DNA of 64,000 nt from Aestuariivirga sp. (GTDB lineage Bacteria; Pseudomonadota; Alphaproteobacteria; Rhizobiales; Aestuariivirgaceae), in the NCBI RefSeq assembly GCF_020252395.1, contig NZ_JADCDB010000017.1:5710-69709 (forward strand). Reading direction: 5' to 3'. The position numbers and the translations under genes were made by a program. Of the stretch, positions 4,581-20,030 are shown in pieces (the stretch's first letter is position 1; every line of letters starts with the position of its first letter). The notes beneath the pieces were generated by a model. It saw only the letters and a list, made by a program, of their open reading frames with translations. It did not search any database and was not told the DNA's origin.

Positions 4581-4943
4581 GGCAACCAGAAATCATTGTT
4601 CGGAACCGGCAGCATAGCCGCTTCTGCCGCTTCTTGCGCCATAAACGTCTGGCTGGGGAGGGAAGCCAGTCGCAGCCGCCTGTGTCTCCCGTCCACCCCG
4701 GCGAAGCAGGAAACGGGAATCGCCATCCTCCGCCCTCCCGGCTCCGCCAGCCCGGCGCATGCTGGGGGCTGGCTTGATCCACGCCAGCACACCGGCCATA
4801 ATGGGAACTTGCTTGGATAATTCAGGAATCGGAAGGATTCGCGAGAATTCGAATTCAGATGCTTCCGAATCGCGTGACCGGCAATCATGACCGCCGGCGT
4901 TTCCTTGTGGCGAATTTCTCCGAAAGCACTAGATTAGCGGTTC

Positions 4944-7900
4944 GTGAGCGATCTTTTTCTGATCTCGGGGGTTGATCTCCCGCACAGCGGCGGTGGCCCG
5001 GGGCCAAGGCCCCCGATGCGAAGGCCTGCGCGTGTACCGCTTGTCACCCCCAGGGTTCTTGAGGGTGCGATCCAACGCACCGTGTTCAAGCCCTCCGAGG
5101 GCCAGCTCGCAGCCGCGAAGAAGTATGCGCGCATCGCCAGGAGCGCCAATTTCGCCAGGCAAAAGGAAGTCAGCGTCCGCGACATCTTTTACACGGACAT
5201 TCTCGGAACCATTCTCGGTTACTCGCGCTACGATCCCGAGAAGACCTACTCCCTGCATCTCGAGAAGGGCATCCGCACTGGTTCCGCGGATGCCGCGCTC
5301 GGGCGCTTCTCCGATGCCCAAGGCGATCGGCTCGTTGCGCCCCTGGAAATGAAGGGTCCTGCCTTCCGCGACCTGGATGCCATCATGCCAGGCCGGGGCA
5401 AAAGCCCGGTGCAGCAGGCGTGGGAATATGCCGTCGATTCTCCTGGCGTCTCCTGGGTGCTCGTCTCGAATTGCATCGAACTGCGGCTTTATCGCTTCGG
5501 CCGCGGGCGGGACGCCTATGAAAGCTTCGATCTCCGCCTGATCGATGACCCGGACCACCTCCGCCGCCTCATGCTGTTGCTCAGCGCGCAGCATCTGCTC
5601 GATGGCCACACGGAAGCGCTGCTCATCGAAACCGACAACGCGCTGCGGTCCGTCACGGACGAACTCTACAAGCAGTATCGAAAGCTGCGCGATGAAGTCC
5701 TCGCCTTCCTCACCTCGGCGGATGGCGGCCCCAGGCTCAACCGGCGCGCCGCCATCGAGCCGGTGCAGAAGCTGCTCGATCGCGTGCTGTTCATCGCCTT
5801 CGGCGGCGGAACGGGCCTGCTTCCGCAGCGCCTGCTTCAGAAGGCGGCGAAGGAACAAAGCTCGTGGCGTCCCGTGCCGGTGTGGGATAATTTTCAGCAG
5901 CTCTTCCGTTTCATCGACAAGGGCAGCGGCCCGCCCTTGCAGATCTGGGCCTATAATGGCGGGCTTTTTGCGCCCGATCCCGTGCTCGATGCCATCGTGC
6001 TGCCCGATCATCTGGCGCAGGCCGTGGCCGATATCGGCAATTGGGATTTCGGCAGCGAAATTCCGGTTACGGTTCTGGGCCGCATCTTCGAACAGTCCAT
6101 CACCGACCTCGAAAAGCTGCGCGCCGAGGCTGAAGGCCGCCCCGCGCCGGACGTCGGCAAGGTTAAGAAGGAAGGCGTCGTTTACACGCCGGATCACATT
6201 GCCCGCTTCCTGGTCGAACAGACGGCCGGCAAGACGTTGGCGGAGCGTTTCGCTGCGCTGCTCAAGCAGCACACCGGCCGCGATTCCCTTCCAAAGTCGG
6301 ATGACGATACACTGTGGCCAAGCCCCGGGGCCGAAGCCCGCTTCTGGCAGGATTATCTGGAGGTTCTTCGGTCGCTCAAGGTGCTGGACCCCGCCTGCGG
6401 GTCCGGCGCGTTCCTTGCCGCCGCATTCGATGTGCTGGCGGCGGACTATGCGCGGGTGCTCAACCGCCTCGACGAACTGAAGGTCCACACCGGCCTTGAC
6501 GCCTTCGACGAAATACTGGGCCGCAACCTCTTCGGCGTCGACCTCAACATCGAGTCGGTCGAAATCACCCGCCTGTCGCTGTGGCTCAAAACGGCGCGCC
6601 AGAAGCACCGGCTTGCCAGCCTGGATGAGACCATCAGGGACGGCAACAGCCTGATTGGCGAGAAGAACTATGCCGACCGTCCCTTCGCCTGGGATGGCCG
6701 CTTCGCCGATATCTTGAAGCAGGGGGGCTTCGACATTGTCATCGGCAACCCGCCCTATGTCCGGATGGAGCTACTCAAGGACCAGAAGCCCTATTTCAGC
6801 AAGCATTACGAAGTGGCGGACGAACGCACCGACCTCTACGCCTATTTCTTCGAAAAGGGCGTGGATGTGCTGAAGCCCGGCGGGCGGTTGGGCTATATCT
6901 CCTCGTCCAGTTTTTTCCGCACCGGCTCCGGCGTCAAGCTGCGCGCCCTCATGGCCGAAGAAACCGAAGTCGAAACCGTCATCGATTTCGGCGACGAGCA
7001 GATTTTCGAAGGCGTCACCACCTATCCCGCCATCATCACGGCGCGCAAACTCGCCAAGGACGAGCAGCCCGCGGGCGAGTTGCGCTTTTTCAACATCAGA
7101 AAACTGCCGCCGGACTTGGGCTCAGCCTTTCAGGCCCAGTCGCAAGCCATGCCGCGAAACCGGCTGGGCTCCGCCTCATGGCAATTCGAAAGCGATGCCC
7201 TGGCGCGGCTGCGGGACAAGATCGCCAAGGGCCGAAAGACATTGGGCGAGGTCTATGGCGCGCCTTTGCGGGGCATCATAACGGGCCTGAACGACGCTTT
7301 CATCATTAACACGCCAACGCGTGACCGGTTGATTGCCCGCGATCCGAAATCGGCCGATCTATTAAAGCCGTTCCTCAAGGGCGAACACATCAAGCGCTGG
7401 CGCGTGGAGCCGGAGGGCTTGTTCCTCATCAACATCCCAAAAGGCAAGATCAGCATCGATGATTATCCGGCTATTCGGGATCATCTGTTTCCATTCAAAG
7501 CGGAACTGGAGAGGCGCGCAACAAAGCAGGAGTGGTTTGAGCTTCAACAGGCGCAGCTTGCGTATCAGAAAAAATTCTTACTACCGAAGATATCTTATCC
7601 CCATTTTCAGAACAGCAGAATGTTCTGCCTAGAAATTGATGGTTCCTTTTCGAATGATAAGTCCTACTTTATCCCAACTGGCGACCTTGCGCTCCTTGCG
7701 TATCTGAATTCGAACGTTTCTTGGGTTTTCCTGTGTGGAGTTTCGCCTGCTGTTCGAAACGGGTGGCATGAAATGAGGGTTCAGTATGTTGAGAGTTTGC
7801 CGCTCGCCAATCTTACGGCGGCAACTGAAGCTGCTCTGATCGATCTCGCGCAAATCTGTACCGAACTCTCGCGCGAAAGCTTCCAGATTAGCCGAGCGGT

Positions 7901-8204
7901 ATATCTCCGTGTCGTCGCTGACCTGGCTAAAGGTAGAGCAGTTTCTGCAAAACTGCAGGAGTGGTATCAACTCGCTTTCGCTCAGTTCCGCTCCGAAGTG
8001 AAGCGAGTCTTTAGGGCGGATATTCCGGTCCGCGAGCGCGCCGAATGGGAGGCCTATCTCACGGAGGAAGGCACAAAGGTGAAGGCGCTTTCGGCTCAGA
8101 TCGCAGCCGCCGAAGCAGAGATCAACCGTCTCGTTTATGCTGCCTTCGATCTCACCGATCCGGAAATTTCTTTGCTGGAAGAGTCGCTCGCCGGTCAGTT
8201 GTAA
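4944..8204 (+). CDS. single-polypeptide Type IIG/IIL restriction-modification enzyme (MmeI-like: N-terminal nuclease, gamma-class N6-adenine methyltransferase, TaqI_C-like specificity domain)
   Basis: There is a D...ExK nuclease-like motif (ADAALGRF...VAPLEMKGPAFRDLD...QQAWEYA). The SAM motif I is VLDPACGSGAFL and the catalytic motif IV is IGNPPYVR. The TRD-like segment reads LRGIITGLNDAFIINTP...IKRW. The start is uncertain: GTG 4944 or ATG 5016. Confidence 0.85.
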   Translation: MSDLFLISGVDLPHSGGGPGPRPPMRRPARVPLVTPRVLEGAIQRTVFKPSEGQLAAAKKYARIARSANFARQKEVSVRDIFYTDILGTILGYSRYDPEKTYSLHLEKGIRTGSADAALGRFSDAQGDRLVAPLEMKGPAFRDLDAIMPGRGKSPVQQAWEYAVDSPGVSWVLVSNCIELRLYRFGRGRDAYESFDLRLIDDPDHLRRLMLLLSAQHLLDGHTEALLIETDNALRSVTDELYKQYRKLRDEVLAFLTSADGGPRLNRRAAIEPVQKLLDRVLFIAFGGGTGLLPQRLLQKAAKEQSSWRPVPVWDNFQQLFRFIDKGSGPPLQIWAYNGGLFAPDPVLDAIVLPDHLAQAVADIGNWDFGSEIPVTVLGRIFEQSITDLEKLRAEAEGRPAPDVGKVKKEGVVYTPDHIARFLVEQTAGKTLAERFAALLKQHTGRDSLPKSDDDTLWPSPGAEARFWQDYLEVLRSLKVLDPACGSGAFLAAAFDVLAADYARVLNRLDELKVHTGLDAFDEILGRNLFGVDLNIESVEITRLSLWLKTARQKHRLASLDETIRDGNSLIGEKNYADRPFAWDGRFADILKQGGFDIVIGNPPYVRMELLKDQKPYFSKHYEVADERTDLYAYFFEKGVDVLKPGGRLGYISSSSFFRTGSGVKLRALMAEETEVETVIDFGDEQIFEGVTTYPAIITARKLAKDEQPAGELRFFNIRKLPPDLGSAFQAQSQAMPRNRLGSASWQFESDALARLRDKIAKGRKTLGEVYGAPLRGIITGLNDAFIINTPTRDRLIARDPKSADLLKPFLKGEHIKRWRVEPEGLFLINIPKGKISIDDYPAIRDHLFPFKAELERRATKQEWFELQQAQLAYQKKFLLPKISYPHFQNSRMFCLEIDGSFSNDKSYFIPTGDLALLAYLNSNVSWVFLCGVSPAVRNGWHEMRVQYVESLPLANLTAATEAALIDLAQICTELSRESFQISRAVYLRVVADLAKGRAVSAKLQEWYQLAFAQFRSEVKRVFRADIPVRERAEWEAYLTEEGTKVKALSAQIAAAEAEINRLVYAAFDLTDPEISLLEESLAGQL

Positions 8205-8573
8205 CTTCGCCCGTGGAGCGTCAAACCCTCACTGCCAGAGCCCGCATCGGCTTCATCGCCGTCGACGACGGCGGCGCCCTTTTCGCGCTGCGCCGCACTG
8301 CGTGAACATGCATCAACCGCCCCGTCGTGAGCAGGGCAACCGCGCATGGCCTTCCCCACAAAGGGGATGAAAATCCTATCGCCAGCCGCTTGCGGGGGCG
8401 GGACGGCGAAGAGTTCCGTCGTCCCCTGTCGCCGCGCATGGGCGGCGGAAACGGGTGGTGCGGCGGGCGCGGGGGAGCGCCACCGCCGGTGGCCATTCCC
8501 GAATTGCAGTTCCCGCTTGCCGCGCCCCGTGCTCAAATGCCGGGCAAGGGAGCTGACGGGGATATCCGCTACC

Positions 8574-9440
8574 ATGTTTGCCGTGCTTTTCGGCGTGTTC
8601 GCCGCGCTGTGCTGGTCTGTCCATGACGTGATTGCGCGGTCGATTGTTGGCGCGGTGGGCGGCTTCCGCACCGCGGCCTGGGTGATGGTGTCGGGCTTCA
8701 TCCTGCTCTCGGCCTATGTGCTGTGGGAGGGCAGCGTCTGGCAGGCCTCCGGCCCCGCCATCTTCTCCGGCCTGGCTCTTGGCTTTGCCTATGGCTTCGG
8801 GGTGGGCGGGCTGTTCAAGGCCTTCAGCCTGGGGCCTGTGTCGCTGGTGGGGCCGATCACGGCGGGCTACCCAGTGCTCGCCGTGCTGTGGGGCGTGTTC
8901 AACGGTTTGGAGCCGACACCTTTGCAATGGGCTTGTGTCGGAGCGACACTGTTGGGCACCATTATCGTGGCACGATCCGGCGAGCCCGATGGCGGCATCA
9001 ATGCTGTGGCGCCCGGCAAGATGCCAGTGCTGCTGTTCTTCGCGGTCATGGCGGTGCTGGGCTATTCGTCCTCCATCGTGCTGGGCCAGCAGGCGGCGCT
9101 GACCGTGGGCGAGGTCGATGCCACCTGGCTGTCGCGGCCCGTCGCGCTGCTGGTGCTGCTGCCCTTCGCCTTTCTCGATGGCAGGCGTTCGGTATTGACC
9201 CGAAACCAATGGATCGGGATCTTCGTTATGGGCGGGCTCGATGTACTGGGCGTCATCGCCGTCAATGCCTCGGGCCATTTTCCCGGCAAGGAGTTCGCCG
9301 GCATCGGTATTTCGGCCTATGGCGCGCTCTCGGTCATCATGGCGATGATCTTCCTCAAGGAAAAAGTTTCGCCCGGGCAGTGGCTGGGACTGGCCATGAT
9401 CGTGCTCGGCGTGGCAACAATGTCGGTGACCCAGAATTGA
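8574..9440 (+). CDS. DMT/EamA-family membrane transporter
   Basis: The polytopic hydrophobic protein starts MFAVLFGVFAALCWSVHDV at ATG 8574. The upstream part of ORF 8346.. is non-membrane, R/A/G/C-rich, coding-unlike sequence and is treated as a spurious extension. Confidence 0.72.
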   Translation: MFAVLFGVFAALCWSVHDVIARSIVGAVGGFRTAAWVMVSGFILLSAYVLWEGSVWQASGPAIFSGLALGFAYGFGVGGLFKAFSLGPVSLVGPITAGYPVLAVLWGVFNGLEPTPLQWACVGATLLGTIIVARSGEPDGGINAVAPGKMPVLLFFAVMAVLGYSSSIVLGQQAALTVGEVDATWLSRPVALLVLLPFAFLDGRRSVLTRNQWIGIFVMGGLDVLGVIAVNASGHFPGKEFAGIGISAYGALSVIMAMIFLKEKVSPGQWLGLAMIVLGVATMSVTQN

Positions 9441-9505
9441 GGTGGATTAAGTCAGACCACCTGATTTATCTTCGCGGCGATGACGGCAGGACCCGAGACA
9501 TACCC

Positions 9506-11950
9506 ATGATCAAGCCAGCCCCGCGCGGCGCCGACCCCGAGACGATCCGCGCTGAAATCCTTGAAAAACTTGCCTATTCGGTGGGCAAAGACCCCGCGGT
9601 TGCCAAGCGCCATGACTGGCTCACCGCCACCATCCTGGCGCTCCGCGACCGCATCATCGACCGCTGGATGGAATCGACCAAGCGCGCTTATCAGACCAAG
9701 GCCAAGCGCGTCTATTACCTGTCGCTCGAGTTCCTCATCGGCCGCCTGCTTCGGGATGCGATGAGCAATCTTGAGCTCACCGGCGCCTTCACCAAGGCCT
9801 TGGCCGCGCTCAATGTCGATATCGACCTGATCGAGGCGCTGGAGCCTGACGCGGCGCTGGGCAACGGCGGGTTAGGCCGTCTCGCCGCCTGCTTCATGGA
9901 GAGCATGGCGAGCCTCGACATCCCGGCCTATGGCTATGGCATCCGCTACAATCACGGCCTGTTCCGCCAGAAGATCACCGACGGCTGGCAGGTGGAACTG
10001 CCCGAAAACTGGCTTGAGCACGGAAATCCCTGGGAATTTCCGCGCCGGGAGGCCGCCTACGAGATTGGCTTCGGCGGGCAGGTGATGCCCGGCATCGATG
10101 CCAACAACCGCCACCAGCGGCGCTGGAAGCCGGCCGAGAAGCTCATCGCCTCCGCATGCGACACGCCCATGGTGGGCTGGCGCGGCAGGCGGGTGAATAC
10201 GCTCCGCCTGTGGACGGCCCGCGCGCCGGACCCGATCCGCCTCGATGCCTTCAACAGCGGCGATTATGCGGCAGCCCTCTCCGGGAGCAACAAGGCGGAG
10301 ATCATCACCCGCGTGCTTTATCCTGCGGATTCAACGCCCGCGGGCCAGGAGCTGCGGCTCCGGCAGGAGTATTTCTTCACCTCCGCCTCGCTGCAGGACA
10401 TCATCCGCCGCCACATGCAGCAGTATGACGACATCCGGCTGCTGGCCGACAAGGTGGCCATCCAGCTCAATGACACGCACCCCGCCGGGGCGGTGGCGGA
10501 GCTCATGCGCATATTAGTGGATCATCATGGGCTGGACTGGGACGAGGCCTGGGAGATCACCAAGGCTGCGATCGGTTACACCAACCACACCTTGTTGCCG
10601 GAAGCGTTGGAAAGCTGGCCCGTGCACGTGTTCGAACATGTGCTCCCGCGGCACATGCAAATCATCTACGGCATCAACGCAAAACTCATCGGCGACGCGC
10701 AGAAAAGCAACTTTTGCAACGATGATTTTCTCGCTTCGGTGTCATTGATCGACGAGCACAATGGGCGCCGGGTGCGCATGGGGCAGCTGGCCTTCGTTGG
10801 CGCGCATTCGATCAACGGTGTTTCCGCCTTGCATACGGAACTGATGCAGCAAAGCGTGTTCCGAGACCTCAACAAACTCTACCCGGGCCGCATCAACAAC
10901 AAGACCAACGGCATCACGCCGCGGCGCTGGCTTCTCGAGGTAAATCCGCGGCTTACGTCGCTTCTCAACGAGGCCGCCGGCGCCAATGCGATGGACGATG
11001 CCGAAGTTCTGACACAAGCCAAAGCCTCCGCCACGGATGCCGCCTTCCAGCAGCGCTTCGCGGCTATCAAACGGCACAACAAGGAAGAGCTTGCCAATCT
11101 GATCGCCGCGCGGATGGGACTGAAAGTCGATCCCGCGGCGATGTTCGATGTGCATGTGAAGCGCATTCACGAATACAAGCGCCAACTGCTCAACATATTG
11201 GAAACAATAGCACTTTACAACGCGATCCGCGCCCATCCCGAGCGGCCCTGGGCGCCGCGCGTCAAAATTTTCGCAGGGAAAGCAGCGGCGAGCTATGCCC
11301 AGGCGAAGCTCATCATCAAGCTGATCAACGATGTGGCGCAGGTCGTCAACAACGACCCTGACGTGCGCGACCTCCTCAAGGTCGTGTTCATCCCCAACTA
11401 CAATGTGAGTTTGGCGGAAGTCATTGTTCCGGCTGCCGATTTGTCAGAACAAATTTCGACAGCGGGCATGGAGGCCTCGGGCACGGGCAACATGAAGTTC
11501 GCGCTCAACGGGGCGCTGACCATCGGCACGCTCGACGGCGCCAATGTCGAGATGCTGGAGCATGTGGGTGCGGACAACATCTTCATCTTCGGTCTGACGG
11601 CTGCGGAAGTTGATGAAAAGCGTCGCATTGGTGTTGACGCCGTTGCACTTCTGGATGCTGCCCCAGAGCTACGGAATGTCCTCGACCAACTGTCGTCCGG
11701 CGTGTTCTCGCCGGGTGACAACAACCGGTACCGGCCGATCGTCGACAGCATCACCCATGGCGACTGGTTCATGGTCGCCTCCGACTTCAAAGCCTATGCC
11801 GCGACCCAGCACGAAGTGGCCAAGCTCTGGCACCGGACCCGGGACTGGACGAAAAAGACGATCCTCAATACGGTGAACATGGGTTGGTTCTCGTCCGACC
11901 GGACGATCCGGGACTACGCCCGCGACATTTGGCACGTGCCCACCATTTGA
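9506..11950 (+). CDS. glgP: glycogen phosphorylase
   Basis: ATG at 9506 gives MIKPAPRG.... GT35 phosphorylase motifs are present: LGNGGLGRLAACF, EASGTGNMKFALNGALTIGTLDGANVE. The first 261 codons of ORF 8723.. overlap the EamA gene and are rejected. Confidence 0.93.
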   Translation: MIKPAPRGADPETIRAEILEKLAYSVGKDPAVAKRHDWLTATILALRDRIIDRWMESTKRAYQTKAKRVYYLSLEFLIGRLLRDAMSNLELTGAFTKALAALNVDIDLIEALEPDAALGNGGLGRLAACFMESMASLDIPAYGYGIRYNHGLFRQKITDGWQVELPENWLEHGNPWEFPRREAAYEIGFGGQVMPGIDANNRHQRRWKPAEKLIASACDTPMVGWRGRRVNTLRLWTARAPDPIRLDAFNSGDYAAALSGSNKAEIITRVLYPADSTPAGQELRLRQEYFFTSASLQDIIRRHMQQYDDIRLLADKVAIQLNDTHPAGAVAELMRILVDHHGLDWDEAWEITKAAIGYTNHTLLPEALESWPVHVFEHVLPRHMQIIYGINAKLIGDAQKSNFCNDDFLASVSLIDEHNGRRVRMGQLAFVGAHSINGVSALHTELMQQSVFRDLNKLYPGRINNKTNGITPRRWLLEVNPRLTSLLNEAAGANAMDDAEVLTQAKASATDAAFQQRFAAIKRHNKEELANLIAARMGLKVDPAAMFDVHVKRIHEYKRQLLNILETIALYNAIRAHPERPWAPRVKIFAGKAAASYAQAKLIIKLINDVAQVVNNDPDVRDLLKVVFIPNYNVSLAEVIVPAADLSEQISTAGMEASGTGNMKFALNGALTIGTLDGANVEMLEHVGADNIFIFGLTAAEVDEKRRIGVDAVALLDAAPELRNVLDQLSSGVFSPGDNNRYRPIVDSITHGDWFMVASDFKAYAATQHEVAKLWHRTRDWTKKTILNTVNMGWFSSDRTIRDYARDIWHVPTI

Positions 11951-11964
11951 GGAGCTGACGCCAC

Positions 11965-14160
11965 ATGGCCGACCCGGACTGGACACTGCCTGCACCTGAG
12001 GTCGAGGCAATCGTATCGGGTCGACACGGAGATCCCTTCGCCGTGCTGGGCTTGCACCAGGCTGGCGCGGAGTGGGTGGCCCGCGCCTTCGTGCCGGGGG
12101 CGGAGGAGCTCGAAGTCCTCGACACGGACGGCAGGCGTCTCGCCGCGCTGCCACGCCGGCACCAGGCCGGCTTCTTCGAGGGCTTGCTGCCAGTATCGTG
12201 TCGACAGGGGCTGGGCTATCTCGCGCGCAACCAGGGCGGCAGATGGACGGTGATCGACCCCTATTTACTGGGTCCGGTGCTGGGACCGCTCGACGATTAT
12301 TACATCGGCGAGGGAAACCACCTGCGGCTTTATGACCGGCTGGGCGCGCATCCGATGCGGCACGAGGGGCATGACGGCGTGCATTTCGCGGTGTGGGCGC
12401 CCAATGCCTCACGCGTCTCCGCCGTCGGCGACTTCAACGGCTGGGACGGGCGAGCCCACGTGATGCGGAAGCGCCGCGACACAGGCGTGTGGGAGATCTT
12501 CATCCCCGGCGCGCAGGAAGGGCAATGCTACAAGTATGAATTGCTCGACCCCACAGGCAAACTGCTGCCGCTGAAGAGCGACCCGTTCGGATTTTCCGCC
12601 GAGATGCGGCCCAAGACGGCCTCGCGCGTGGCGCGTACCGATAATTTCAATTGGGAAGACAAGGCCTATCTGGACCGCCGCCGCAAGATCGACCAGCGCC
12701 GCACACCGATGTCGATCTACGAGGTGCATCTGGGCTCCTGGCGGCGCTGGAACGATGGCCGCTTTCTCACTTATGACGAACTCGCCGACACGCTGATCCC
12801 CTATGTGGCCGAGATGGGCTACACGCATATCGAGCTCCTGCCGGTGAGCGAGCACCCTTTCGACCCGTCCTGGGGCTACCAACCGACAGGGCTTTATGCG
12901 CCGACCTCGCGCTTCGGCGATCCGGCGGGCTTCGCGCGCTTCGTGGACGGCGCGCATCGCGCGGGGATCGGCGTCATCCTCGACTGGGTGCCGGCACATT
13001 TCCCGACCGACGAGCATGGGCTGGCACGCTTCGACGGCACCGCACTCTACGAGCACGAGGACCCGCGGCAGGGCTTCCACCCGGACTGGAACACCGCAAT
13101 CTATAATTTCGGGCGGAGGGAGGTGGCAAGCTTCCTGCTCAACAACGCGCTCTACTGGCTGGAGCGCTATCACGTCGATGGACTGCGCGTCGATGCGGTG
13201 GCCTCGATGCTCTATCTCGATTACTCGCGCAGAGAGGGCGAGTGGATTCCCAACGAACATGGCGGGCGCGAGAACCTGGAGGCTATCGCCTTCCTGCAGC
13301 GCGTGAACCATGAGGCCTATGGCCAGAACCCCGGCATCGTGACCATTGCAGAGGAATCGACCGCGTTTCCCGGCGTGTCGAAGCCCACCAATGCAGGCGG
13401 CCTCGGCTTCGGCTTCAAGTGGAACATGGGCTTCATGCATGACACACTGTCCTACCTGAAGCGCGAGCCCATCCACCGCAAGCACCACCACAATGAGCTG
13501 ACCTTCGGCCTGCTCTATGCCTTCTCGGAAAACTTCGTGCTGCCGCTGTCCCACGACGAGGTGGTGCATGGCAAGGGTTCGCTCTTGAACAAGATGGCGG
13601 GCGATGCGTGGCAGAAATTCGCGACCTTGCGCGCCTATTACGCCTTCATGTGGGGATACCCGGGCAAGAAGCTGCTCTTCATGGGGCAGGAACTCGCACC
13701 CTGGGGCGAATGGTCGGAGGCCAAGAGCCTGGACTGGAACCTGCTGGACCATGCGCCGCACCGCGGCGTGCAATCCCTCATGCGCGACCTGAACCACGTC
13801 TACCGCGGCACGCCCGCGCTCCATGCGCGCGACTGCGAGCCGGAGGGCTTCGAGTGGCTGACGGCGGACGACAAGGAAAACTCCGTCTTCGCCTGGGCGC
13901 GCCATTCGGGCGAGGGACACCCGATCGTGGTGGTGGTGAGCAACTTCACGCCTGTGCCGCGGACGTGCTATGCGCTGCCCATGCCGGTGGCCGGACGCTG
14001 GCGGGAGCTGCTCAACACCGACGCCCATATCTATGGCGGAAGCGGCATGGGCAACATGGGGGCGGTGGTGGCGGAACCGGAGCCGCTGAACGGCAAGCCG
14101 GCCCAGGCAAGCGTGACCTTGCCACCGCTCGCAACCTTGTATTTCATGCAGGATGGCTAG
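11965..14160 (+). CDS. glgB: 1,4-alpha-glucan branching enzyme
   Basis: 731 aa. GH13 motifs are present: [48 protein letters not shown]. Confidence 0.95.
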
Positions 14161-14172
14161 GGACGTGGTTTT

Positions 14173-14221
14173 CCCTCCCCCTTGTGGGGAGGGGAGAAGG
14201 AAATGGACGGCTCCCCACAAG
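14173..14221. repeat. nested inverted repeats in the glgB-glgC spacer (REP-like, not a canonical terminator)
   Basis: CCCTCCCC (14173-14180) pairs with GGGGAGGG (14186-14193) across the loop CTTGT. In addition, CTTGTGGGGAG (14181-14191) is the exact reverse complement of CTCCCCACAAG (14211-14221), which allows an alternative pairing. No U-tract follows. Confidence 0.45.
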
Positions 14222-14240
14222 AGCGAGGGGAACTGGAAAC

Positions 14241-14327
14241 GGAGGAAGGCCCATGGCCGGACAGAGAAGGACCGGACCGCTGGCGCGCGATGCGATGGCC
14301 TATGTGCTGGCCGGCGGGCGCGGCAGC
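14241..14327 (+). repeat. direct repeat copy 1: duplicated glgC RBS plus codons 1-25
   Basis: 87 nt align with 15704..15790 at offset 1463 with 4 mismatches: ggaggaaggcccATGgcc...gtgctggc...cgcggcagc. Confidence 0.9.
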
Positions 14328-14351
14328 AGTGTCGCTGTGAGGTGGAGGTAA
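14253..14351 (+). pseudogene. glgC' 5' remnant (32 codons, [25 protein letters not shown] then out-of-context SVAVRWR*)
   Basis: The first 25 codons match glgC at 15716. The ORF leaves homology at 14328 and stops at TAA 14349-14351, 5 nt before the cassette ATG. Confidence 0.8.
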
Positions 14352-14356
14352 CGATC

Positions 14357-15163
14357 ATGCCTGACAGCAACCGGATAACGATGATCATCGAGGGTCTGCC
14401 CGAAGACGATGGCCGGGTCCGCTTTAAGACTTTCATCGATCAGCTCCAGAGTCTCAACGCAACAATCAATAGACTCGATCGAGAGCATTCCGAAGGTCGA
14501 GAGCACGTCGATTTTCAGATAGCCGAGCTTTCCTTCAACAGTCCTGTGCGCGTTGTTCTGGAACCAAAACCCACTGCGAATGCGCAAGGTATTGCGGCAG
14601 CCATCATCGATAGCTTCAAAAAAGTCGGGGATGCCATAGACGGCGATGATGATCTGAGCAGAATTGATAGCGATATTCTTGCTGATATGCGCGCCCTTGC
14701 CCGCCCGGTTGGTAAGCAGGTGAAATCCGCTTCTCTTCGATTCGATGGCGAAGAATTCAGATTGACCGAGCGTGTCTATAGCCGAGCTGATCAAGCTCTA
14801 GCCGTAACAGAAGAATGTGACGGAACCTTCGATGGAATGCTTGAGCAAATCAACATCCATCTTGGGGCGAACACCTTCCACATCTACCCGACTATCGGCC
14901 CCAGAAGGATCGCTTGCACCTTCCCAGCGACACTATACGACGATGCTGTCGCGGCCGTTGGTAGAAGAGTTGAAGTGTCCGGCTTACTCAGATACCGGTC
15001 GGGTGCAGACTTCCCCCATCAGATAATTGTGCGCGAAATCAGAGTGTTTCCCAACGAAGACAGCCTCCCAGATTGGGAGGACATCCGAGGAATAGCGCCA
15101 GATGCAACAGGTTCTTTAACGAGTGAGGCATTCGTAAGGGAGTTGCGTGATGCCTGGGTCTAG
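14357..15163 (+). CDS. hypothetical 268-aa protein, first gene of the cassette; putative partner or antitoxin of the PIN protein
   Basis: ATG 14357 is preceded by GGTGGAGG (14341-14348). I recognise no family motif. The gene overlaps the start of the downstream PIN gene by 14 nt. Confidence 0.65.
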   Translation: MPDSNRITMIIEGLPEDDGRVRFKTFIDQLQSLNATINRLDREHSEGREHVDFQIAELSFNSPVRVVLEPKPTANAQGIAAAIIDSFKKVGDAIDGDDDLSRIDSDILADMRALARPVGKQVKSASLRFDGEEFRLTERVYSRADQALAVTEECDGTFDGMLEQINIHLGANTFHIYPTIGPRRIACTFPATLYDDAVAAVGRRVEVSGLLRYRSGADFPHQIIVREIRVFPNEDSLPDWEDIRGIAPDATGSLTSEAFVRELRDAWV

Positions 15164-15668
15164 TCCTCTGTACTACTGGGATACATGCCTCTTCCTTGCT
15201 TGGCTGAAGGATGAAGAACGCCCAACGGGTGAAATGGCCGGGGTACGGGAAGTAATCGCCAAATGTAAGCGTCGCGACGCAGTCATGATGACTTCTGTTG
15301 TCACGTTGACGGAGGTCTTGAGCTCCCAATTGCCCGCTGGAACAGACAGACTCTTCACCGATCTAATGCAGAGAGTTCAACTCAAGTCCGTGGATACCAA
15401 AATAGCTCGCTTAGCTCATGACCTAAGAGACTGGTTTTGGCAAAGGCGAGCCGAGTACAACAATACCCCACTCTCTGTTCCTGATGCATTGCACTTAGCA
15501 ACTGCTGTTCTGTACAAGGCAAATGAGTTCCACACATTTGATCGTAAAAACAGTCGTAACTCGCTCGGACTATTGCCTCTGTCTGGAAATGTGGGCGGCC
15601 ACAAATTGGTTGTATGTAAACCAGAGGCAAAGCATCTGGAGCTTGATCTCCGAAGGCCGAAAAAATGA
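15150..15668 (+). CDS. PIN-domain (VapC-like) ribonuclease, 172 aa
   Basis: The acidic quartet has PIN-typical spacing and context: D11 (YYWDTCLF), E55 (TLTEVLS), D112 (VPDALHLATAV), D131 (FHTFD). The start is ATG 15150, with GTG 15147 as an alternative. Confidence 0.8.
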   Translation: MPGSSPLYYWDTCLFLAWLKDEERPTGEMAGVREVIAKCKRRDAVMMTSVVTLTEVLSSQLPAGTDRLFTDLMQRVQLKSVDTKIARLAHDLRDWFWQRRAEYNNTPLSVPDALHLATAVLYKANEFHTFDRKNSRNSLGLLPLSGNVGGHKLVVCKPEAKHLELDLRRPKK

Positions 15669-15703
15669 CGAATGAAACGACATTCGATAACATAGCCGAA
15701 TAG

Positions 15704-15790
15704 GGAGGAAGGCCCATGGCCGCACAGAGAAGGACCGGACCGCTGGCGCGCGATGCGATGGCCTATGTGCTGGCGGGGGGCCGCGGCAGC
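15704..15790 (+). repeat. direct repeat copy 2: functional glgC RBS plus codons 1-25
   Basis: See copy 1. This copy continues into the full-length glgC. Confidence 0.9.
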
Positions 15791-16977
15791 CGGCTGATGG
15801 AACTGACCGACCGGCGCGCCAAGCCCGCCGTGCCCTTCGGCTGCAAGTCGCGCATCATCGACTTCGCGCTGTCCAACGCGCTCAATTCCGGCATCCGGCG
15901 CATTGGGGTGGCCACGCAATACAAGGCGCACAGCCTGATCCGCCACATGCAACGCGGCTGGAACTTCTTTCGCCCCGAGCGCAACGAGAGCTTCGACATA
16001 TTGCCGGCCTCGCAGCGCGTGTCGGAAGACCAGTGGTATGCCGGGACGGCGGATGCAGTGTACCAGAACCTCGACATCATCCTGAGCTATGGCCCCAAAT
16101 ACATGGCGATCCTGGCGGGTGACCATATTTACAAGATGGATTACGAGCTGATGCTGCAGCAGCACGTCAACTCCGGCGCCGACGTGACCATTGGCTGCCT
16201 TGAGGTGCCGCGCATGGAGGCGACGGGCTTCGGCGTAATGGCCGTGGACGGACAAGACCGCATCACCGCTTTCGTGGAAAAGCCGAAGGACCCGCCGGGC
16301 ATTCCCGGCAACCCTGACATGGCGCTGGCCTCCATGGGCATCTATGTGTTCGAGACGGCGAAGCTGGCGCAGTGGCTGCGCGAGGATGCGGCGAACCCCC
16401 AGTCGAGCCGCGACTTCGGCAAGGACATCATTCCCTTCCTCGTCAATCACGGCAAGGCGGTGGCGCACCGCTTCACCGCGAGCTGCGTGCGATCGGAACA
16501 TGAAACGGAAGCCTACTGGCGCGACGTGGGGACCGTCGATGCCTATTGGGAAGCCAATATCGACCTGACCGAGACGCTGCCCGCACTCGACCTCTATGAC
16601 ACCGAGTGGCCGATCTGGACTTACTCCGAGGTGACGCCGCCCGCCAAATTCGTGCATGACCTCGAAGGCCGGCGCGGCTCGGCCGTGGCCTCGCTCGTCT
16701 CCGGCGGTTGCATCGTGTCCGGCGCTTCCATCAAGCGCACCATGCTGTCGCCCAATGTGCGGGTGAACTCCTTCTCCGCGCTCGAGGAGGCAGTGGTGCT
16801 GCCGTCGGTTTTCATCGAACGCAATGTGAGCCTGAAGAAAGTTGTGATCGACACCAGCGTGCGCATCCCTGAGGGCCTCGTCGTCGGCGAGGATCCGGAG
16901 CTCGACGCCAAGCGCTTCCGCCGCACGGCGAGCGGCATCTGCCTCATCACCCAGCCGATGATCGACCGCCTGGCATT

Positions 16978-16981
<4 letters not shown>
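15716..16981 (+). CDS. glgC: glucose-1-phosphate adenylyltransferase
   Basis: 421 aa. The sequence reads [27 protein letters not shown], then [13 protein letters not shown] and FVEKP. Confidence 0.95.

Positions 16982-20030
<3,049 letters not shown>

Follow-up and report, generated by a model that had tools for sequence, protein, structure and literature searches.

The subject of this study is a pair of overlapping genes found in a 64,000-nucleotide (nt) stretch of DNA from the alphaproteobacterium Aestuariivirga sp. (RefSeq assembly GCF_020252395.1, contig NZ_JADCDB010000017.1, positions 5,710–69,709 of the forward strand), referred to here as the window. The upstream gene (designated A) encodes an acidic protein belonging to an unannotated family, and the downstream gene encodes a basic PIN-domain protein of the VapC type (Table 1). 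The pair is a VapC-type module with a large partner protein, predicted to contain an OB fold, that is carried by an insertion sequence (IS) and has, in the window, become domesticated within a glycogen operon.

The initial annotation of this DNA, made from the sequence alone, described a 268-amino acid (aa) open reading frame (ORF) that overlaps the PIN ORF by 14 nt. Both the overlap and the positions of the stop codon of A and the start codon of the PIN gene are confirmed here. A longer ORF of 336 aa starting at 14153 was considered as the true gene A but was rejected, as all homologues begin at an MxxxxRIT motif that corresponds to the ATG at 14357. Two features overlooked in the initial annotation mark the pair as an insert. 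G+C content is ~0.50 across the two genes, compared to ~0.65 in their surroundings, this being the sole low-G+C segment within the profiled part of the window (12000–18000), and the pair is bracketed by an 87-nt direct repeat. On the strength of these two observations we regard the A–PIN pair as having been inserted between glgB and glgC.

The PIN protein is recognised by the Pfam PIN model (PF01850) with an E-value of 1.2e-8 and a score of 36 bits against a cut-off of 23.6. The full acidic quartet that had been reported for it (D11, E55, D112 and D131) is conserved: E55, D112 and D131 are invariant in 21 PIN homologues, at least 90% of which retain D11. A model of the protein was built with AlphaFold2 (predicted local distance difference test score, pLDDT, 76.5) and compared to known folds using Foldseek. 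The first 16 matches were all VapC chains of toxin–antitoxin complexes (E-values of 7e-6 to 1e-4), with target-normalised template modelling (TM) scores of up to 0.76. Shigella VapC (5ecw) was matched with an E-value of 7e-6 and a TM score of 0.75; other VapC matches came from the F plasmid, Salmonella, Rickettsia (VapC2) and M. tuberculosis (VapC11, 15 and 20). By sequence or profile, the protein matches no PDB chain, solved VapCs included, and it carries a conserved C-terminal extension of about 40 aa. As modelled, the PIN protein shows a VapC-type fold with an intact catalytic set.

Protein A is quite different from a canonical VapB antitoxin, as the initial annotation had recognised. At 268 aa it is three times larger, and no ribbon–helix–helix (RHH), AbrB, PHD or helix–turn–helix (HTH) domain is detected in it by Pfam or NCBIfam (E ≤ 1). 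There is no match to A in Pfam, NCBIfam, PADLOC or PHROGs at E ≤ 1 nor any PDB sequence match at E ≤ 10, and family profiles built from 21 or 54 members found nothing meaningful in library searches. Profile searches had been suggested as a check on A and, in the libraries searched, it matches no described antitoxin or defence family. Homologues of A are nevertheless numerous. A word-indexed search returned 381 of them, nearly all 267–272 aa in length and every named one a ‘hypothetical protein’, whilst an exhaustive profile search extended the family to 2,452 representative clusters (50% identity), with E-values below 1e-30 for 368.

Amongst 133 A representatives, 27–43% identical to the window protein, 11 residues are kept in at least 95% of sequences: G13, S62, G160, N166, H168, P178, C187, F189, G209, G245 and R264. 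In a deep alignment of the family N166 is present in at least 90%, and H168 and C187 in all, of the sequences. The most conserved segment of the protein is its C-terminal tail, in which G245 and R264 are near-invariant. This segment is acidic, with a net charge of −6, bearing out an earlier suggestion that A ends in an acidic tail, and on these sequence features it is a plausible PIN-binding element.

An AlphaFold2 model of A was made using the family alignment (pLDDT 82.5, pTM 0.72). It comprises an N-terminal alpha/beta region (residues 1–148), an OB fold (~150–230) and a C-terminal helical tail (~232–268), the tail helix (240–267) being modelled with lower confidence when A is folded alone. 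In the OB region, where pLDDT is about 85–91, strands 150–164, 173–178 and 185–188 are followed by a helix (191–200) and then by strands 204–214 and 220–230. When the model was compared to the PDB using Foldseek, the matches were exclusively to OB folds, over about 85–100 residues, with probabilities of about 1.0 and target-normalised TM scores of 0.5–0.68 but E-values of only about 5e-3. Amongst the matched structures were engineered OBodies, YgiW, single-stranded DNA-binding proteins (SSBs), the N-terminal anticodon-binding domains of LysRS and AspRS, the RecG wedge domain and ExoVII. Protein A is therefore predicted to contain an OB fold, with a five-stranded barrel in which a helix connects strand 3 to strand 4. 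Beta-rich segments had been remarked upon in the initial annotation; one of these, RRVEVSGLLRYRSGADFPHQIIVREIRVF, does correspond to strands 4–5 of the predicted barrel, although the overall fold of the protein is mixed alpha/beta.

Conservation in A is concentrated in the tail and in the stretch spanning OB strands 1–3, and the near-invariant N166, H168 and C187 suggest a ligand site in the OB fold. The predicted fold with its near-invariant loop residues thus fits with the ligand-binding module that had been proposed previously, whilst there is no evidence for the defence system that had been suggested along with it. The OB domain itself is mildly acidic, with a net charge of −1.9, in a protein whose overall isoelectric point (pI) is 4.8.

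How constant is the association between A and the PIN protein? Loci carrying A homologues were gathered from a scan of species-representative genomes (42 loci) and from earlier look-ups (three loci). These public loci are designated by L numbers (L001 and so on) and were compared with the window. A PIN homologue lies directly downstream of A in 42 of the 42 loci whose contig extends far enough; the taxa include Alpha-, Beta-, Gamma- and Zetaproteobacteria, Myxococcota, Opitutales and one Candidatus Oxydemutator genome. The co-occurrence that had been put forward as a check on the pairing is thus complete in these loci. In the 33 loci in which both ORFs can be read from end to end the two genes overlap, mostly by 14 nt and elsewhere by 11, 17 or 4 nt, and the junction ...DGW-stop/ATGGCTGG... 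recurs at most of the overlaps. An overlapping pair is also found in distant members of the family (about 30% identity) and in one Bradyrhizobium diazoefficiens genome.

Pairwise identities of A and PIN across loci are closely correlated (r = 0.87, Mantel p = 2e-4), with mean identities of ~54% for A and 60% for PIN. Between the window and L047, the ratio of nonsynonymous to synonymous substitution rates (dN/dS) is 0.041 for A and 0.059 for PIN, with dS about 0.93. The A–PIN pair is a conserved unit, and both of its genes are under strong purifying selection. A small number of loci contain a broken gene. In L026, L038, L039 and L043 it is the PIN gene that is broken, with A intact. The reverse is seen only in L004, L028 and L029, all from metagenome-assembled genomes (MAGs) with the name prefix MFD, which we take to be long-read assemblies, where indel errors are common. 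In L004, the lesion is an apparent in-frame stop in A alongside an intact PIN gene.

Examination of the sequences upstream of A revealed a mobile element that had been overlooked in the initial annotation. In about half of the loci, A is preceded on the same strand by an ORF of about 305–320 aa that often ends exactly 36 nt before A. A DDE_Tnp_IS1595 domain is present in 17 of 22 such upstream ORFs, with an IS1595 zinc ribbon also found in 15, and these ORFs match the NCBIfam model NF033547 (‘IS1595 family transposase’) with scores of 185–198 bits against a cut-off of 75. Using tblastn, a full-length transposase gene could be located directly upstream of A in 17 loci, Myxococcota and Opitutales genomes included. 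The transposase gene is truncated in 10 loci, and at least five others keep just its last ~30 nt (...YRDS...stop). The 36-nt spacing and the shared orientation of transposase and A–PIN are seen in Alpha-, Beta- and Zetaproteobacteria, Myxococcota and Opitutales.

Terminal inverted repeats of 21–34 nt, often starting GGCGATGTT, enclose the transposase, A and PIN genes, and six loci display 8-bp target duplications (Table 1). The complete elements measure about 2.5–2.8 kb and have the order left inverted repeat, DDE transposase, 36 nt, A, PIN, a small ORF (orf4) and right inverted repeat. The relatives nearest to the window protein, at 84% and 69% identity, occupy complete four-gene elements of this kind. 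The orf4 product is about 45–65 aa in length, with the motif RFxEAARELxCDEDE..F...L.KIA and a basic C-terminus. Its ORF begins at the PIN stop codon and has no family in Pfam or NCBIfam. It follows PIN in about 23 loci, within which no other copy is seen. The cassette has a G+C content about 10 points lower than that of its flanks in nearly every locus. These observations show that, in this clade, A–PIN is cargo of an IS1595-family insertion sequence. Transposase and A identities are only weakly correlated (r = 0.39, p = 0.06), and in distant members of the family A–PIN is retained with no IS1595 transposase.

Palindromes resembling repetitive extragenic palindromes (REPs), of the type TTTCCCCTCCCCCTTGTGGGG, are found in the window (Table 1), in L046 and in L027. 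A complete related IS of 2.58 kb in L046 is inserted inside such a palindrome (2628–2648 and 5330–5350), with CTTGTGGG as its target duplication. L027 has a 21-nt inverted-repeat pair of the REP-like kind outside the IS ends (2057–2077 and 4709–4729). The IS may prefer REP-like palindromes as targets.

The copy in the window is a stripped one. A tblastn search with the transposase found no similarity anywhere in the window, and there are no terminal inverted repeats, no 8-bp duplication and no complete orf4 around the pair. The possibility that the window copy is an active IS was accordingly rejected, and the absence of transposase, inverted repeats and 8-bp duplication identifies it instead as a derivative of the IS cargo. 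Between the two copies of the 87-nt repeat, just 29 nt remain upstream of A and 35 nt downstream of PIN. The insertion is at codon 25 of glgC, and the 87-nt duplication, which differs from the 8-bp product of IS1595 transposition, regenerates glgC. The two copies are 95% identical; their four differences comprise one non-synonymous and three synonymous third-position changes, a pattern that hints that one copy came from the glgC gene of another lineage.

The resulting arrangement is compact. The left repeat supplies the glgC Shine–Dalgarno sequence and ATG, opening a 32-codon leader ORF, and the order thereafter is A, PIN, a 12-codon stub and glgC, with each stop adjoining the next start. Judging from its sequence and position, the stub probably represents the 5' end of a truncated orf4 from the IS. 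The same arrangement is seen in L047, which comes from an unrelated sample and is 84% identical to the window at the DNA level over 1.5 kb: the two share the junctions, the leader with the same stop and 5-nt gap, and an equivalent of the stub (MTKKTKIDKVGE followed by a stop). The shared layout at 84% DNA identity, the dS of about 0.93 and the low dN/dS values indicate that the insertion is old, that diverged lineages have come to share it through inheritance or exchange and that both genes have remained functional without a transposase.

No promoter-like site is found between glgB and A. The coding strand has a single terminator-like match, which falls within the PIN ORF; such matches are at background level in number, and an Rfam scan around the insert found no RNA family. 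As no promoter-like or terminator-like site separates the pair from its neighbours on the coding strand, A–PIN is most likely expressed as part of the glg operon. What the window presents, then, is a putative RNase toxin that lacks a promoter-like site of its own, that would be expressed with glycogen synthesis genes and whose layout has been kept in two diverged lineages. From reading of the sequence, the ORFs at 8723–20030 resemble a glycogen operon surrounding the insert, in the order phosphorylase-like ORF (ending at 11950), glgB, insert, glgC, glgA-like ORF (16978–18408) and phosphoglucomutase-like ORF (18288–20030).

Long duplications are found around two other copies. In L040, a gammaproteobacterial MAG, A–PIN is located in a 1.8-kb islet between perfect 46-nt repeats (5628–5673 and 7432–7477). 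The repeat is the 3' end of a tRNA-Lys gene (5597–5673), making it an att-type-like duplication, and no integrase is encoded between the repeat copies. In L010, a transposase-less A–PIN–orf4 cassette lies between copies of a direct duplication of at least 400 nt (5223–5648 and 7941–8400; 92–98% identical) that runs to the contig end, a second example of a stripped cassette enclosed by a long duplication.

Table 1. Coordinates of the A–PIN insert and its flanks in the window, with target duplications and orf4 examples from related loci
Feature	Locus	Position	Strand	Remarks
Gene A	window	14357..15163	+	ATG 14357, TAG 15161-15163; 268 aa; acidic, pI 4.8; unannotated family
PIN gene	window	15150..15668	+	ATG 15150, TGA 15666-15668; 172 aa; pI 9.4; VapC-type; D11, E55, D112, D131
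REP-like palindrome (TTTCCCTCCCCCTTGTGGGGAG / CTCCCCACAAGAGCGAGGGGAA), inverted repeat I1	window	14170..14232		Between glgB stop and insert; context only
Left copy of 87-nt direct repeat (family D1)	window	14241..14327	+	Duplicate of glgC ribosome-binding site and first 25 codons
32-codon leader ORF	window	14253..14351	+	glgC' codons 1-25 plus 7 new codons; stop 5 nt before ATG of A
12-codon stub (MTNETTFDNIAE, then stop)	window	15665..15703	+	ATG overlaps PIN stop as ATGA; stop abuts glgC Shine-Dalgarno
Right copy of 87-nt direct repeat	window	15704..15790	+	Genuine ribosome-binding site and 5' end of glgC
glgB	window	11965-14160		Flanks insert on left
glgC	window	15716-16981		Flanks insert on right
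8-bp target duplication	L001			CTTTTTTT
8-bp target duplication	L015			GTTTGCCG
8-bp target duplication	L016			AATTATTG
8-bp target duplication	L022			TTTATTGG
8-bp target duplication	L024			GAAAGTTA
8-bp target duplication	L046			CTTGTGGG
orf4	L014	1878-2100		Immediately after PIN
orf4	L025			Immediately after PIN
orf4	L030			Immediately after PIN
orf4	L044			Immediately after PIN
orf4	L046	4984-5184		Immediately after PIN
orf4	about 18 more loci			Immediately after PIN

What might the pair do? On balance we lean towards the view that A–PIN is a toxin–antitoxin-like module with a large new partner that travels as cargo of an IS1595 element, the window retaining the surviving A–PIN core. In such a module the basic VapC-type PIN protein would act as an RNase toxin, and the acidic A protein, translated first from the coupled upstream ORF, would bind and neutralise it. 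The likely point of contact would be the conserved acidic C-terminal helical tail of A, with its near-invariant G245 and R264. The OB body, through N166, H168 and C187, might bind a ligand, candidates being a nucleic acid and the surface of the PIN protein that binds RNA; ligand binding of this kind would make inhibition conditional. The module would stabilise its mobile element, and it persists once the transposase has decayed.

Several observations support this proposal. The partner gene comes first, as in VapBC, and is translationally coupled to the PIN gene. The two proteins have complementary charges (pI 4.8 for A, 9.4 for PIN). The pair is found on low-G+C mobile DNA in unrelated housekeeping contexts, and it outlasts decay of the transposase. 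The distribution of broken genes is also asymmetric, with PIN broken and A intact in four loci against the reverse in three MFD loci; this asymmetry and the complementary charges are indirect support for neutralisation of PIN by binding of A.

Other observations weigh against it. Type II antitoxins autoregulate through a DNA-binding domain, and none is detected in A. Antitoxins of the ordinary kind tend to evolve faster than their toxins, whereas conservation of A is near that of the toxin (~54% against 60% mean identity), suggesting that A has a function beyond plugging the active site. The toxin is still under strong purifying selection although the transposase was lost long ago, which exceeds what simple addiction would predict. 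The in-frame stop in A in L004, with its intact PIN gene, would if real argue against A as an essential antidote. Finally, the net charge of the OB domain (−1.9) is atypical of nucleic-acid binders.

Of the known systems, the module most resembles VapBC but is not canonical VapBC. The similarities are a PIN toxin with four acidic residues whose best structural matches are VapC proteins, a partner gene that lies upstream of and overlaps the toxin gene, the combination of acidic partner and basic toxin, and a conserved C-terminal segment with an arginine in the partner. FitAB and certain VapBC complexes have a C-terminal arginine that extends into the active site. The differences lie in the size of the partner (268 aa as opposed to about 70–90 aa), in its predicted OB fold in place of an RHH, AbrB, PHD or HTH domain, in its being about as conserved as the toxin and, on the toxin side, in the ~40-aa C-terminal extension of the PIN protein and the lack of sequence similarity to solved VapCs even by profile. 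As the small DNA-binding antitoxin that characterises VapBC is absent, we have not classified the pair as canonical VapBC.

The carriage of the pair by an IS also has precedents. ISfinder lists IS1595 subgroups with passenger genes, such as ISNwi1. The related loci resemble these in possessing a transposase of ~310 aa (NF033547, zinc ribbon and DDE), inverted repeats of about 24 nt, 8-bp duplications and internal non-transposase genes, whereas the window copy lacks transposase, inverted repeats and 8-bp duplication, and displays an 87-nt target duplication instead. Toxin–antitoxin pairs, PIN types included, are reportedly integral passengers of Tn3-family transposons and are thought to stabilise the element. 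These too place a toxin–antitoxin-like pair of PIN type beside transposition genes; in the present case, however, the carrier is a small IS that encodes a DDE transposase of the IS1595 type but lacks a resolvase, and the candidate antitoxin is a new large protein. In the literature that we searched on PIN and OB-fold antitoxins, IS1595 passengers and ISNwi1/ISNha5, neither the partner family nor its carriage as IS cargo is described.

These results provide a first structural and genomic description of a family that is unannotated in the libraries searched, comprising over 2,400 clusters at 50% identity, whose members are obligate partners of a divergent VapC-type nuclease. They also show that the pair has been transported across bacterial phyla by an insertion-sequence lineage. 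Were the partner to be an antitoxin, it would widen the range of antitoxin architectures to include an OB fold and tail with no DNA-binding domain. Were it a sensor or an IS helper, control of the toxin would be linked to ligand sensing or to transposon biology.

The initial annotation had instead suggested a candidate sensor-antitoxin or a two-gene defence system. In an abortive-infection scheme of this sort, the OB body of A would sense a phage or other foreign nucleic-acid cue and release the PIN RNase, and the pair would be kept for protection of the host or of the element. This we consider unlikely. The strong purifying selection on both genes in a transposase-less copy suggests a benefit beyond addiction, and the near-invariant polar residues in the OB loop region of A are as expected for a ligand site. 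Some distant family members are located near an MmeI-type restriction–modification gene, a Gp49/HTH pair or a patatin gene. However, PADLOC-DB 2.0.0 matches neither A nor PIN (E ≤ 1), and the neighbours of 40 loci (120 proteins) represent 160 Pfam families, which are for the most part housekeeping and of which none is found more than three times. Amongst these neighbours only sporadic methyltransferase, DarG or QatD-like hits are seen, with no recurrent defence gene. Members of the family were found in only 2 of 2.9 million viral contigs, and tblastn found no match to A in 72,556 plasmids. The proposed assignment to defence is therefore not upheld by PADLOC, by the gene neighbourhoods or by the viral contigs. 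A defence function is possible but unsupported, and it is not exclusive of, but compatible with, a toxin–antitoxin function.

A further link to phage biology comes from fold comparison. The model of A matches three phage proteins along its full length (E about 1e-9, TM 0.39–0.45), one of which is annotated as DUF6575, a domain that occurs in an E. coli anti-phage system obtained by experimental selection (PMC9519451). Protein A shares no sequence similarity with these proteins and has no PADLOC match, and the root-mean-square deviations are 11–13 Å. One of the matched proteins, Q6NE06 (381 aa), is from Leptospira phage LE1. We took this to be the product of LE1-0037, picked by length as the unique 381-aa gene in the first 50 kb read of the 73.6-kb record. 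LE1-0037 lies on the minus strand, 2 nt downstream of a 176-aa DUF4365 gene (L050, 38735–40413 for the two), rather than beside a PIN gene. A published account (PMC10810196) names DUF4365 amongst the nuclease domains that partner short Argonautes. In LE1 there may be a similar partner-plus-nuclease pairing that uses another nuclease. When the A profile was compared with the LE1 protein, however, hhalign returned a probability of just 0.25%, and with sequence similarity absent the link is a structural lead only.

A more radical proposal is that the OB protein, PIN and orf4 constitute a dedicated transposon-serving accessory system of the IS1595 clade, found across phyla and representing a new class of IS-encoded helper. 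This is a long shot in our estimation. The role of such a system might be to penalise loss of the element, to regulate transposase RNA or to process intermediates of transposition, which would set it apart from an ordinary toxin–antitoxin passenger. Accessory nucleases favour retention of IS200/IS605 elements, a comparable logic. If A–PIN–orf4 does serve the transposon in this way, then the long duplications at stripped copies (87 nt in the window, 46 nt in L040, at least 400 nt in L010) could reflect a second, transposase-independent form of mobility.

We also consider it improbable that the three proteins are simply accessory factors of the IS that act on its own DNA or RNA (transposition intermediates, transposase mRNA or retention of the element) with no toxin directed at the host. 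That the genes lie within the inverted repeats, co-oriented with the transposase and often 36 nt downstream of it in several phyla, would be consistent with this, as would the presence of a third conserved small ORF after PIN in about 23 loci. Set against these are the survival of intact, strongly selected A–PIN pairs in copies whose transposase is decayed or absent, and the distant family members in which the pair is kept without an IS1595 transposase. The weak correlation between transposase and A identities, at 0.39 (p = 0.06) against 0.87 for A and PIN, and the match of the PIN fold to RNase-type VapC toxins and not to FEN-like DNA nucleases point in the same direction.

PIN and OB-like RNA-binding domains occur together in known proteins, for example the PIN–TRAM protein YacL and Rrp44/Dis3, and A might on that model be an RNA-binding specificity subunit whose OB fold, akin to those of LysRS/AspRS, SSB and the RecG wedge, recruits substrate to PIN in a two-subunit RNA-processing enzyme; conservation of A to the same degree as the nuclease would agree with this, but it is improbable given the strong acidity of A (pI 4.8; OB domain net charge −1.9), the persistence of A where PIN is broken, and the low G+C content, IS carriage and scattered insertion sites that are signs of a selfish or accessory module and not of a housekeeping enzyme.

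In L055 and L056 (3228–4807), an NTP_transferase (PF00483) gene precedes, by 27 nt, a distant A–PIN pair of about 32% identity. GlgC, a glucose-1-phosphate adenylyltransferase, presumably belongs to the same Pfam family, and the presence of this neighbour in L055 and L056 is probably a coincidence.

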